A DNA stretch of 64,000 nucleotides from Naegleria gruberi (lineage: Eukaryota). The notes under the pieces were generated by a model that saw only the letters and a list, made by a program, of their open reading frames with translations, made no database searches and was not told the DNA's origin. Positions within the stretch are counted from its first letter, which is position 1, and each line of letters starts with the position of its first letter. The stretch lies in assembly GCA_000004985.1 (NCBI GenBank), contig GG738863.1, one strand, 5' to 3'. Position numbers and translations under genes: made by a program. Shown piece by piece: positions 1 to 5,359 of the stretch.

Positions 1-1
1 C

Positions 2-985
2 AACTCTGGAGAAATTCAAACTGGAGAAAGAAGAGACTTGTTGAGTTGTCTCATTGAGGCCAACTATGTTCAAAAGGGAGTTTTGACTGAGGATGAAGTT
101 AAATCAGATGCATTCATCTTTTCGCTTGCTGGGTTTGTATTCAAATTTTAAAACTATTTTTCCTAATTTTATTGAAATAGACATGAGGTGAGTTTTTGCA
201 AATTTACAATTTTTTGTAATGATGAATTTTTTATTTGAAATTTTAGACAACTTGTAAGTTTCGATTAATATTTGATTTTTGTTAACATGAGTGATAGCTA
301 CTACATTACAGGTAAGTTTTCAATGAAAATTCAAGAAAATTCGAATAATATTAAGTGGACTTGTTACGAACTTGGTAAAAGACCTGAAATACTCAAGAAA
401 GCTCAAGAAGAAGTTGATCGCATACTTGAGAATGGATCAAGAATTGCAACCTATGATGATTTCCCTAAAATGAACTATCTCAACATGATCATTATGGAAA
501 GTCTCAGAGTTCATCCTCCTGTCAGTGCTGCCTATAGAGTTGCCAAAAAGGCAACCACCATTGGAAAGTATCACATTCCAAAAGATACAATTATTCAAAT
601 GGAATTTGCTAACACTCATTGGAATGAAAAATTCTGGGAACAAGCCAATGAATATAATCCAGAACGATTCCCAACTGATTTTGAGGATAGACAAAAGATT
701 CACAGCGATTTCACATGGGTTCCATTCTCAATGGGAAATAGAAAATGTGTAAGTATGACAGTTTTAGTTTATAATAATGATTTGCCTTAATAGATTGGCT
801 ATAAATTTGCTCAATATGAAGCCTTTGCCATCATGTCACGACTTTTACAATTATACGATATTAAATTGGTCAATGATGAGAGACTTCCTGAAGATCAAGT
901 GACTGAAGAAAAGGGTCCAACTGTCGGCCCAGGAAATTTACATTTGATTTTCAAGAGAAGATCATCTGTGAATGCATCTCAATAA
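2..985 (+). CDS. cytochrome P450, 3' portion of a multi-exon gene (5' end lies outside the window)
   Basis: Frame-2 translation from nt 2 gives ...DEVKSDAFIFSLAG. Later exons give WTCYELGKRPEILKKAQEEV, ESLRVHPP, PERF and the heme-binding signature FSMGNRKC|IGYKFAQYEAF, which is split by a 45-nt GTAAGT..AG intron (749-793) that preserves frame. Stop TAA at 983-985. The small exon junctions between about 134 and 350 are not resolved. Confidence 0.7.
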
Positions 986-1048
986 TTTGAAAATAAACAA
1001 CTTTTCATTGTTCATTGTTCGTTGTAATAATTTAACAAAGAAAAAAAA

Positions 1049-2295
1049 ATGGAACAACACAAAACCAGTTCCATCACCAGTAATAATAATAATTTTTCAA
1101 ATGCTGATCACGAGCACGAACATTCGGAAGTAACAAAAGAAAATCAATTATCAATTTTCGACCAAGTATTGAATGATGATATTTTCCGAATTGTTCTTTC
1201 GTTTTTAAATGTTTCAGAATTGATGATTCTGGCAATTGTTTCTAAAAAATTGAGAATTGGTCAGCTCTCATCAGAAGACTATTTATGGAAGGAATATTAT
1301 GTGAATAGAGTGAAGGTACTCAATGATAATTTCAAAAATCAGTACAGATATCAATTATTGAGGAAAGTCGATAACACCAATTTATTTGAAAAGTATTTAC
1401 GTTTTGATTGTGATTTTAAGAAACATTTAATTGAACTGGGAGCTGAAATGGCATTGAAATCTGAGCAAGATTATAAAAAGAGAACAGAATATATTGAAAA
1501 ATTAAAACAGCTTGAGTATGGGAGAGTGGGCTTTCATACACGAGAGGAAATTCTTGCATGTGATTTGAAAATCAAATATTTACAACCTCAGTACAAAATC
1601 ATTCAAATTGGTAAGTTTTGTTTTTGAAATATTCAACTCAATTTGGATTTAAAGGTGATCAAGCTGTGGGAAAGACCAGTATTTACATGCGAATGCAGAA
1701 TTATGAGATGCCAACAGAGTATACACCAACTGTTTTTGACAATTTTAGTGACACCTATAAATACATAGATAGAAACACAATTAATCTGCACTATTGGGAT
1801 ACTGCTATTCATGAAGGTAAGTTTTCTAATTCAATACATATATTAGAAGTAATTGCAAGATGTGGATCAGTAAGTTGTTTTCTTTGTAACAATATTGACA
1901 CCAATCAAAAAAGATTCAGGATTTTTAGAATTTTCCCTGGTGTAGAGTTATTTCTTTTGAGTTTCAGTTGTGGATCTGATTCTAGTATGGAAAGTTTGAT
2001 ATCAAAGTGGTTTCCTGAATGTATTAAATATTGCCCAAATATTATTCTGGTTTGCACCAAAACTGATTTGAGAAATGAAAAAACCTTTTGTAAGAGATTA
2101 ACTGAGAAATTTCAAAGAAAGCCAATTGGATTCGAACAAGGAGAGCTACTTGCAAGAAAAATGGGATGTATTACCTATTTGGAAACCAGCTCTTTTAACA
2201 ATGAAGGTATCAAAGATTTGACTGAAATTATTGCCAAATCTATTGTGATAGCTTCAAATTCAACTCTGAAACAAAAGAAATGCATGCTGCAATAG
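1049..2295 (+). CDS. F-box domain fused to an atypical Rho-family GTPase domain
   Basis: ATG at 1049. N-terminal F-box-like segment LNDDIFRIVLSFLNVSELMILAIVSKKL...LWKEYY. A phase-1 GTAAGT..AG intron (1611-1654) joins ...KIIQIG to DQAVGKT, which is the P-loop GDxAVGKT. Rho motifs follow: switch I EYTPTVFDNF, TKTDL (NKxD-type) and ETSSF. Switch II reads WDTAIHE instead of WDTAGQE and is followed by an insertion. Possible further short introns at 1817-1947 could not be phased. The frame is open to TAG at 2293-2295. Confidence 0.55.
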
Positions 2296-2330
2296 TTCAC
2301 TTTCAATAATAACTCATGGAAGTGAAAAAT

Positions 2331-2933
2331 TTACTTTATTTTAGAGACCAACCATTCAATACTCTCAGTAATATTAAACTCATTAATTATACTGGTCATG
2401 AAAACTTCGAGAGGACGTTGAGGATTCGACTCGTTAACACCCTTAGTAGGACCAGTTCTCAAATGAGAAACTCCCATTGTACAACAGAGTTCAAATTCAG
2501 ACATGGCTTGAGGATTATCAACCTTATTACCCAGAATTACTACTGGAACATTGGCCAAGTCTGGATCATTTAAAATCTTGGCCAATTCCTTAGCAGCAAC
2601 CTGAGATCTCTTTCTATCCATTGAATCGACAATGAAAACAATACCATTCACATCAATGCAATATTGTTTCCAAAGCTGACGTGCCAGATCATGTCCTCCC
2701 ATATCTATGGCTTCCACAGAACATGTCGATGAAATTTCAATGGATTCCTTATTGGGAGTAGTTGTACTTTGATAGGCACCAATAAGATTACTCTTCAATT
2801 TGTGCAATAGTGTTGTCTTTCCAGCATTGTCTAATCCTAGAAATATAATCTTTCCCTTCACTGATGACATTAATCCCAATAATTTCAGCAAGTCAGAGCA
2901 ATAATTTAAAATCCAACTGAAAAATGAAGACAT
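2331..2933 (-). CDS. sar1: Sar1 small GTPase (COPII)
   Basis: Single 200-aa ORF with GLDNAGKTTLLHKLK (the Sar1 P-loop), DMGGH (switch II), LGNKVD and a C-terminus ...EVFMTSIINE....SKIK matching Sar1 end to end. Convergent with the upstream gene, with 35 bp between stop codons. Confidence 0.9.
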   Translation of the reverse strand: MSSFFSWILNYCSDLLKLLGLMSSVKGKIIFLGLDNAGKTTLLHKLKSNLIGAYQSTTTPNKESIEISSTCSVEAIDMGGHDLARQLWKQYCIDVNGIVFIVDSMDRKRSQVAAKELAKILNDPDLANVPVVILGNKVDNPQAMSEFELCCTMGVSHLRTGPTKGVNESNPQRPLEVFMTSIINEFNITESIEWLVSKIK

Positions 2934-3597
2934 TTTTGATTACAATATTTTACAATATGAGTGAAAGAAGTAGGTAGAAGTTTGTTTAATTGAGAACTGA
3001 GCAGTTACCAATTATTGTTGTTTTTTTTGATTATGAAAATTTCATTATTATCAACTCATTAGAGTTTTTAAATAGATTCGTATCAAACACCTCACCACAC
3101 GTGTCGGTTGGACAAATTTGGAAATCAATGACGTATACTCCAACGTCATCCCTCAACAAACAAATTGTGTTATTCTGAAACTTTTGTTTATTAGTCCTCA
3201 GAAAACATGTTCATCCAATAAAGTGGAAATATGTTATTGATTAATATTTAATAAATTTTGTTCTTTATAAAAATGATTGAGATGGTCATTCTCTACTTTA
3301 ACTTGGCATTTGCTTTGATTCCAACAAGAGTTTCTCAAAAGAATATAGTACTGCTTCTCATCAATCTTCCAAAGGTACATTTGAAGGAATGAACGAAAAG
3401 ATATGAACAAGCATTTTCCGAATGTTCCAGTACCTTCTCTGCTAAGGCATTGGAAAAATGTGGATTCTCCACTCAACATGCATTCATTATGCTGATTATG
3501 AGATTACCAAAGATCAAAAGGTTCTCAAACCATTCGTTCATGTTCCACTTCCACAAATCTATGAATTTAGTTTAGAATTATCATTTGTAAATAACAA

Positions 3598-5359
3598 TCA
3601 TTGTAATAGGCATTTGACATTTTTCAATAAAACTAATTCCTTGTAAGGAAATGTTTTCCATTGTGGGTCTTTCTTAATTTCTTTCAAATGTGAAGCAAAG
3701 GAATATAAAACCACTTTTTGTAATTGTAGAGCTTGGTAGGTTTCTGAAATTTCAAAAATGGTAAACAAGTCAATAGAGCAGTCTTTGAGAGGAGTTTCCA
3801 ATTCTTCATTTACTATTGAAGCAATGTATAATTCGCATATAGAACTCAATGAACTGATCATATACTTATTCGATAGGGTTAGAAGACTTATTGCATTCTC
3901 TTCGGTCATTTCTACCTTTCCAGTACTAATATATTCCACAATTGATTTGAAATGATAATAAAACTTTTCGTCTCCTTCTGAATCATTTGTCAAGTCCACA
4001 ATACAAGATTCACTCTCTGTAAAATTGCCTTCAAACATAATTTGAAAATATTCACAAGCACACGACAGAAAGTTTCTATTCGATTTCAAAATATTGTTCC
4101 CAATCATAAACGAAACATCCAACCAATGAGAATTTTCCAATGTAGATTGCCTAATATTATTGAAATAGGCATTATTAATACTGTTCTTGATATGTTCACG
4201 ATCTAATAAATTCTTATTTAAGTGTGTTATTGCCTCATAGTCTGAGAAAGAAAATGGATTTTGAAAATTAATTCCCTCACTCCAATCTCCAGAGTAAACT
4301 AGTTTCAAAATATCAAGAAGGTCTTTTTTCGAAATATTTTCGAAAGCAATACGAACTACTGATATGTTACTATCCAATTCAATACTAAGGTCAATCTGAA
4401 ACTCTTGCTGAATGGAAATAATTTCGCGTTGATCCAAAGATTGACCATTCGAATTAATGATCACTTCTGAAATTCTTTTCAGTAAAGGACAGGGACAACA
4501 ATATAAAATCCAAGAATGTCCAAATAATTTCCCCTCCACGCCACATTCAAAAATCAAATCGCTCTTCCACTCATTATTCAATAACTTGGAGAACTTGTCC
4601 ACTAGAAAATAATCCTCCACTTCAAATTCAGTCAAATTACTTGGCTCAATTGGTCCTCTGTTGAGAAGGTATTCAAAAAAGTTGTTAACACTCAATTCAG
4701 ACTTGGAGGAACAACTAAAAAATCGATCAATTCTTGGATGTCTTCTCATGAAATTTCTAATTTTCTCTTCGCTCACTCCCTGAAATTTCTCATCAGAAAT
4801 TAAATCATTTTTCATTCCAACCAAAACTACAAAATCTATCTGTGTAGATTTTATAATTTTCATCCATTTAGATTCCAAACTTTCAAAGGTCGTTTCATCA
4901 ACCATTGAAAAACTAAATCCAGTCAATAATAATTTCACACAATCACAAACTCACCAAAGAACCAACACATTCATTGAATTAATAAAAGCTCTTTCAACTT
5001 TAATTATGACATCACATTAAATTCCAATTTCCACTAAAACTCACCACTAATAATTCAAATTGTTTGTTTGAATTTAATTTCCTCACTAAATTACTTACTG
5101 AATTTCATCTCCGATCACATCAAATAATGACAAACAAACAGTTGACGAATTTTTCAACTTGATATTAGCAGACTTTTAAAATTGCAAAATAATATTAGTG
5201 GTGATCGGAATTAAAGAAACTCACATAACTATCCAATCGTCTGGGAACGTATTCTCCTTCGAATAGGGTTTCATCATCAACACCTGTATATTTTAATAGG
5301 AATGTGGTTTTCCCACAACCAATGTCGCCAAGCAATAGCACGGCCAGTGGTGGATCCAT
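3598..5359 (-). CDS. RhoBTB-like protein (atypical Rho GTPase domain followed by a BTB/POZ-like region), multi-exon
   Basis: Exon 1 (ATG at 5359) encodes MDPPLAVLLLGDIGCGKTTFLLKY...EYVPRRLDSY and ends at a GTGAGT donor. An internal exon contains VCLSLFDVIGDE (switch II with the Gln replaced). The ORF 3598-4938 encodes the second half of the Rho domain (FSMVDETTFESLESKW, VLVGMKNDL, CSSKSELSV). It is followed by LIFECGVEGKLFGHSWILYCCPCPLLKRI, which is BTB-like. Exact junctions in 4939-5253 are not resolved. Confidence 0.7.

Follow-up and report, generated by a model that had tools for sequence, protein, structure and literature searches.

Fusions of a small GTPase to an adaptor of the cullin-RING ubiquitin ligases (F-box or BTB) are unusually common in Naegleria, and the F-box 'Rac' proteins among them are catalogued by Herman et al. 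2021 (BMC Biol 19:142, PMC8296547; Additional files 4 and 10), where at least 11 such entries are given for N. gruberi in the portion of Table S8 examined. In the parts of that article on which we draw, the authors propose 'GTPase-dependent ubiquitination', state that the F-box Rab-like clades follow birth-and-death evolution and remark on roles of those clades at the organism-environment interface; the same parts do not discuss substitutions equivalent to Rac1 positions 12, 60 and 61. Here we describe a member of this family encoded at 1049-2295 on the plus strand of a 64,000-nucleotide stretch of N. gruberi DNA (contig GG738863.1, hereafter the window). It is a real, intact four-exon gene whose 371-amino-acid product joins an F-box, recognised as such at the level of the family, through a helical linker to a Rac-like G domain, and it is set apart among the aligned family members by replacement of the DxxG glycine (G60→I, Rac1 numbering) combined with G12Q and Q61H. 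Over all its 371 aa the product has the sequence of XP_002678060.1* (100% identity), which Table S8 lists as a manually corrected 'Rac' model with the additional domain 'F-box' and without a pseudogene flag (PMC8296547), and the window gene is therefore this catalogued gene. Together with 311 identical aa in the neighbouring RhoBTB-type ORF, this shows the window to come from N. gruberi, a heterolobosean, and rejects a dictyostelid origin, on which an earlier proposal to look for such fusions in dictyostelid proteomes had rested. Both gene and architecture are thus already known, the corrected model having appeared in 2021 in supplementary material; what is added here, namely the three replacements Q190, I239 and H240, of which the one at the DxxG glycine is unusual, together with the CaaX box, is a small addition and not a new kind of system.

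Several described proteins resemble this one in part. RhoBTB (metazoa, Dictyostelium RacA and Naegleria) likewise carries a degenerate Rho domain and a cullin-RING adaptor module in one polypeptide. Its BTB domains, however, are C-terminal and take the Cul3 route, whereas the window protein has an N-terminal F-box, which points to the Skp1/Cul1 route, and a CaaX box, and the two are not orthologous; a Pfam search of the window protein returned no BTB match, this domain belonging to a neighbouring gene (3598-5359, minus strand). The layout of the FBXW-type proteins (Fbw7, beta-TrCP and FBXW8), an F-box followed by a helical linker and then a substrate-binding domain, is matched with a Rho-like domain in the last position. 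The GTPase-deficient and constitutively GTP-bound Rnd1-3 and RhoH are, like the window protein, substituted at positions 12 and 61 and have a prenylated C-terminus (predicted from the CaaX box in our case). Rnd1-3 and RhoH keep the DxxG glycine. The window protein, unlike these, has Ile at that position. Rnd1-3 and RhoH are vertebrate families without an F-box, and membership of the window protein in them is not expected. Finally, the only experimentally studied F-box small GTPase found in the literature searched is TbFRP of Trypanosoma brucei, like Naegleria a member of Discoba, a FYVE-F-box-Ras-like GTPase whose rapid proteolysis was observed and linked by its authors to the F-box, the role of which was left unresolved (PMC3593210). 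TbFRP has a FYVE domain, a Rab18-like G domain and membrane targeting through phosphatidylinositol 3-phosphate (PI3P), whereas the window protein is Rac-like with a CaaX box; its authors found no N. gruberi ortholog (PMC3593210), and no FYVE match was obtained for the window protein with Pfam.

The gene lies in compact, AT-rich surroundings (34% GC in the 64-kb window) with short introns of the GTAAGT type, and its limits, the ATG at 1049 and the stop codon TAG at 2293-2295, hold in the open reading frame (ORF) and translation as an earlier sequence-only reading of the stretch had placed them. Exon 1 (1049-1610, plus strand as are all features of the gene) encodes residues 1-187 and the first base of the Gly188 codon, in agreement with the curated XP_002678060.1*. 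It contains a low-complexity N-terminus, the F-box (1169-1300, residues 41-84, LNDDIFRIVLSFLNVSELMILAIVSKKLRIGQLSSEDYLWKEYY), the conserved helical linker (1301-1591, residues 85-181, delimited by family alignments and AlphaFold2 (AF2) helices) and strand beta-1 of the G domain (YKIIQIG). Intron 1 (1611-1654, 44 nt, GTAAGTT...AAAG) was also placed correctly by the earlier reading; it is in phase 1, and the split codon G-GT restores the first Gly of GDQAVGKT, the join reading IQIGDQAVGKT. Exon 2 (1655-1816) supplies the P-loop (1610 + 1655-1677), switch I and switch II (DTAIHE, 1798-1815) and is followed by intron 2 (1817-1859, 43 nt, GTAAGTT...GCAAG), a 10-nt microexon (1860-1869, ATGTGGATCA) that encodes most of D-V-D-Q (residues 242-245) and is the same in the curated model, and intron 3 (1870-1913, 44 nt, GTAAGTT...AAAAG). 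Exon 4 (1914-2295) carries the remaining G domain (FRIFRIFPGVELFLLSFS, TKTD, the Rho insert DLRNEKTFCKRLTEKFQRKP and ETSSF) and ends in a basic KQKK, the CaaX box CMLQ (2281-2292) and the stop codon.

The region after switch II had been described as an insertion into the G domain. This insertion is an artefact, as the stretch in question consists of introns 2 and 3 around the microexon. Enumeration of every one- and two-intron GT..AG combination between 1790 and 1990 yielded only one, 1817-1859 with 1870-1913, in which the spacing becomes Rho-like and the introns have a typical length, and the joined region (WDTAIHEDVDQFRIFRIFPGVELFLLSFS) is one residue longer than its Rac1 counterpart. The four-exon product matches Pfam Ras with 86.3 bits in a single stretch (positions 1-160 of 162) and fits the 12-member family alignment without an insertion, while the read-through models reach 75-76 bits with the match broken into two stretches. 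The rejected models were a single exon from 1655 to 2295 and a variant with one 30-nt intron (1817-1846), both with the lower and split Pfam Ras match; they leave an insert of 19-29 residues that is present in no aligned family member. The heptamer GTAAGTT occurs at 11 sites in the whole window, and three of these are the intron starts of this one gene. Taken with the identity to the published protein, which extends through the microexon, the Pfam gain, the fit to Rac1 and to the family alignment and the rarity of GTAAGTT lead us to conclude that the four-exon model, microexon included, is the correct splicing as far as sequence comparison can tell.

That the F-box N-terminus is spliced onto a Rho-type G domain, as the sequence-only reading had proposed, is borne out at several levels. 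A single ORF runs from the F-box to strand beta-1 (YKIIQIG), which is encoded by the last part of exon 1, and since the Rho domain is incomplete without this exon the F-box and Rho parts belong to one transcript, not to two. The same arrangement is found in single proteins of Naegleria lovaniensis and Willaertia magna and is listed by Herman et al. 2021. All the motifs that had been picked out (LNDDIFRIVLSFLNVSELMILAIVSKKL...LWKEYY, GDQAVGKT, EYTPTVFDNF, WDTAIHE, TKTD(L) and ETSSF) were found again in the product.

The best match of the G domain among solved structures is human Rac1 (E 8e-36), with residues 182-370 aligned to Rac1 4-191, Rho insert and CaaX box included, and the best 60 PDB matches are all Rac, RhoG, RhoA or plant ROP chains. 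The P-loop pattern GxxxxGK[ST] is kept (GDQAVGKT, residues 188-195, vs GDGAVGKT in Rac1) with Gln at the Gly12 site (Q190), and switch I reads YTPTVFDNF vs YIPTVFDNY, retaining T35 of Rac1 as Thr213. The G4 motif is TKTD (K294 and D296) vs TKLD and the G5 motif TSSF (S337) vs CSAL; between them the Rho insert (DLRNEKTFCKRLTEKFQRKPI) aligns to that of Rac1 with a single one-residue gap. The C-terminus has the basic KQKK and then CMLQ (residues 368-371) vs CLLL in Rac1. Hence the motifs that bind nucleotide (GxxxxGKT, Thr35, TKTD and TSS) are all kept. Switch II differs, as it reads DTAIHE vs DTAGQE in Rac1, with Ile239 in place of G60 and His240 in place of Q61, leaving neither the DxxG glycine nor the catalytic Gln. 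The loss of this Gln, noted before from the letters alone, is thus upheld by the Rac1 alignment, and DTAIHE recurs in a 98.5%-identical environmental strain; the earlier reading had included neither G12→Q in the P-loop nor G60→I in DxxG nor the C-terminal CaaX box. Q190 and H240 carry the sequence mark of the atypical Rho proteins, a non-Gly residue at 12 and a non-Gln residue at 61. Across the aligned family Gln61 is kept in 5 of 12 members and lost in 7, and the window protein is the sole member (n=12) with a non-Gly residue at 60, one other having a gap there.

The biochemistry of Ras and Rho proteins gives these three positions a well-established meaning. Substitutions at 12 and 61 weaken both intrinsic and GAP (GTPase-activating protein)-stimulated hydrolysis, and those at G60 block the transition to the active state, the flexibility of the DxxG glycine underlying the GTP-dependent movement of switch II. 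From this and from G12→Q, G60→I and Q61→H we infer a locked G domain, one that probably binds nucleotide and neither hydrolyses it nor switches normally. CaaX boxes with a terminal Q normally direct farnesylation.

The N-terminal region had been called an F-box, and this stands for the family and not for the single protein, which remains below the Pfam cut-off. At E ≤ 0.01, 8 of the 12 family members match Pfam F-box-like and 5 match F-box. A profile built from 27 N-terminal regions of the family was compared with solved structures and matched the F-box of FBXO3 with E 1.1e-7 (FBXO3 residues 8-71) and that of FBXL5 with E 0.0086, with FBXW7, FBXO4 and beta-TrCP weaker; named F-box proteins make up 10 of the 16 profile matches at E ≤ 1, and the two alignments shown cover N-terminal F-boxes. 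The identity of this region as an F-box is therefore well supported at the family level only. AF2 modelling of the N-terminus from a 26-sequence alignment gave a mean predicted local distance difference test score (pLDDT) of 80, with block means of 88-97 across most of residues 40-150 and a fall to 65 near 101-110. The helices predicted in the F-box region (43-51, 55-64 and 69-73) have block means of 93-97, and the linker is predicted to form long helices (81-102 and 123-154); Foldseek found no significant match for this N-terminal model in the PDB. The linker motif, NFK..LIE in the family consensus, reads CDFKKHLIEL in the window protein. For the N. lovaniensis paralog P0020, AF2 modelling over the full length gave a predicted template modelling score (pTM) of 0.81, which suggests that F-box, linker and G domain are packed into one compact body.

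Exon 1 served as query for an exhaustive HMMER search, and the matches were of three kinds: an environmental ORF of 97% identity (on a contig of ENA ERZ929261), proteins of ~356-376 aa in N. lovaniensis and Willaertia magna that are annotated as single proteins with the layout F-box, linker and Rho domain, and Kelch-F-box-Rho forms. The family has in common the F-box, the NFK..LIE linker and the Rac-like domain, and most members also possess a CaaX box with Q or M as its last residue; on these shared features the window protein belongs to a heterolobosean F-box-Rac family. Word-indexed protein searches gave 8 generic Rho proteins (≤38% identity) for the spliced protein and 5 matches for the N-terminal family profile, all already known from the other searches. 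No N. gruberi protein was among these word-indexed matches, nor did the full-length query recover the ENA ORF of 97% identity; the collections apparently lack the source genome annotations, so that the absence of close matches there says nothing about rarity.

The members with Kelch repeats (P0010-P0012, P0014-P0016, XP_002672610.1, XP_002677266.1* and XP_002668324.1) carry them N-terminally, before the F-box-linker-Rac unit, and may thus have a partner-binding domain on either side of the F-box. One of them, P0016 (731 aa), is complete, reads DTAGPE and is without a CaaX box. In the ORF calls P0010, P0011 and P0022 from ENA/Logan contigs the ORF stops directly after the Trp of WDTAG (...IELW, ...IGLW and ...IGYW), which suggests an intron just before switch II in these genes; intron 2 of the window gene follows DTAIHE, and intron positions would then vary within the family. 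Further ENA/Logan contigs hold near-identical copies of other N. gruberi F-box-Rac paralogs, P0011 being a close match to XP_002672362.1*.

The environmental contig (L001; ENA ERZ929261, k127_585116) allowed a comparison with a second strain. Its positions 1143-3884 are syntenic with window 1-2747 at 98.5% DNA identity and in the same gene order (P450, F-box-Rac gene, Sar1-like gene), and we therefore take a close relative of N. gruberi NEG-M to be present in that sample. Under the four-exon model the ortholog has an intact ORF in which a deleted and an inserted codon, neither of them shifting the frame, are the only indels; it keeps DTAIHE, CMLQ, all splice sites and the frame. The sole frameshifting indel falls in intron 1 (45 nt vs 44). 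In the region of introns 2 and 3 the two sequences differ by one substitution only, 98.5% identity being too close to test introns by their substitution pattern. A Nei-Gojobori comparison counted 7 non-synonymous and 4 synonymous changes and gave a ratio of non-synonymous to synonymous rates (dN/dS) of ~0.41, from too few events to be firm. The gene thus appears to be maintained, with no sign of decay.

How might such a protein work? The reading we lean towards, with somewhat better than even confidence, is that it serves, anchored by a farnesyl group and with a Rho-like domain incapable of normal switching, as a substrate receptor of an SCF (Skp1-Cul1-Rbx1) ubiquitin ligase. The F-box would dock on Skp1 and so place the protein at the substrate-receptor position of the SCF, and the linker, if rigid, would hold the Rho-like domain where ordinary F-box proteins have WD40, leucine-rich repeat (LRR) or Kelch domains, the role that the linker plays in Fbw7 and beta-TrCP. 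Searches of the literature on Skp1 in Naegleria yielded nothing specific. The farnesylated CaaX tail would bring the complex to a membrane. There the G domain would bind nucleotide, hydrolyse it poorly and not undergo the normal switch II transition, and would in this locked form offer a constitutive surface for Rho partners (effectors, GAPs and guanine nucleotide exchange factors (GEFs)), which would become the targets of ubiquitination. If the Rho-like domain is indeed the receptor of a membrane-bound SCF, the protein would be a compact natural case of ubiquitination directed by a GTPase fold, and the family, with a catalytic site that is intact in some paralogs and degenerate in others, would provide a natural comparison of switchable and locked forms.

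A number of observations weigh against this proposal. The single protein scores 19.7 bits against Pfam F-box PF00646 (E 7.6e-4, residues 41-69), below the cut-off of 20.5, and similarly 14.8 bits against PF12937 with a cut-off of 24.3. Where F-boxes usually begin with Leu-Pro, the window protein has Leu-Asn (L41-N42), as do most aligned members, the family consensus being LNDD. Sar1 and translation factors use His as their catalytic residue at the position of Gln61, and because of this GTP hydrolysis by the window protein is compatible with its sequence. The dN/dS ratio rests on only 11 substitutions. With exon 1 as query no 1:1 ortholog was found in other species, the nearest sequences beyond those of N. 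gruberi type being ~36% identical over the N-terminus, a gap that also fits a fast-evolving and possibly dispensable paralog. There is no published experiment on any member of the F-box-Rac family.

The weakness of the F-box match also opens the way to a model in which the F-box-derived helices no longer bind Skp1 and form, together with the linker, a module unconnected with ubiquitination that would regulate the Rho-like domain within the molecule or serve its dimerisation. Besides the sub-threshold Pfam score and the Leu-Asn, the single compact body of the full-length model agrees with it; the family profile, however, matches genuine Skp1-binding F-boxes over all three helices (FBXO3, E 1.1e-7), and we regard such a module as very unlikely. 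If Skp1 is bound, the F-box could instead couple the GTPase itself to the SCF for rapid turnover, the Rho-like domain being the signalling part and the F-box its degradation handle. Auto-ubiquitination is common among F-box proteins. The rapid proteolysis of TbFRP, tied to the F-box by its authors (PMC3593210), also fits self-targeting, but the conserved, confidently predicted linker and the compact full-length model (pTM 0.81) resemble a receptor scaffold and not a simple degron, and the Kelch-bearing paralogs suggest modular substrate recognition, so that self-targeting appears unlikely, though it deserves to be taken seriously.

Alternatively, the gene could be a recent duplicate in a birth-and-death family that has lost its GTPase function (G12Q, G60I and Q61H) and is drifting towards a pseudogene. 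Such a history would suit a large and variable family in which Gln61 is missing from 7 of the 12 aligned members and the P-loop is broken or the CaaX box absent in several, the absence of a close ortholog in other species in the exon 1 search, and the standing of the window protein as the only aligned member with a non-Gly residue at 60; birth-and-death evolution has been stated for the F-box Rab-like clades by the authors of the catalogue (PMC8296547). Yet the ORF is intact over four exons, three canonical introns and a 10-nt microexon, and the second strain keeps splice sites and frame, its exon indels being whole codons and its frameshifting indel lying in an intron. The dN/dS of ~0.41 is below 1, the protein retains its CaaX box and the motifs that bind nucleotide, and the curators gave it no pseudogene flag (PMC8296547). 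Ongoing decay therefore seems distinctly unlikely to us, and the membrane-anchored SCF receptor remains the reading that we prefer. A further speculation, and a very long shot, is that the fast-evolving F-box-Rho paralogs, the window protein included, are 'integrated decoys', membrane-anchored Rho look-alikes that capture bacterial effectors or toxins directed at host Rho GTPases and hand them to the SCF for ubiquitination. The captured proteins could be mimics of GEFs or GAPs or modifying enzymes, in an amoebal innate defence that follows the logic of the integrated decoys of plant nucleotide-binding leucine-rich repeat (NLR) proteins. The idea fits the lineage-specific expansion, the variability of the sequences and the organism-environment remark, which was made for the F-box Rab-like clades (PMC8296547).

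The F-box-Rac gene is one of three small-GTPase genes of different families within ~4.3 kb. Convergent with it, with the two stop codons 35 nt apart, lies a Sar1-like Arf-family GTPase gene (2331-2933, minus strand), intronless and encoding 200 aa (Pfam Arf 152.6 bits, GLDNAGKTT and DMGGH); an exact look-up of this ORF found nothing on record in collections that apparently lack the source genome annotations. The RhoBTB-type gene (3598-5359, minus strand) encodes a Rho-like domain with a degenerate switch II (DVIGDE) and a BTB domain; its N-terminal exon starts at 5359, its introns lie between 4939 and 5302, and over 311 aa its sequence agrees without a difference with N. gruberi XP_002678166.1* (Table S8, PMC8296547). 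It is 1.3 kb from the F-box-Rac gene, so that two fusions of a cullin adaptor with a Rho domain occur within 4.3 kb. On the other side, a cytochrome P450 gene with several short GTAAGT introns is represented by its 3' part at 1-985 (plus strand), p450 Pfam matches being found on the syntenic environmental contig; 63 nt separate the stop codon of this gene from the start codon of the F-box-Rac gene downstream.

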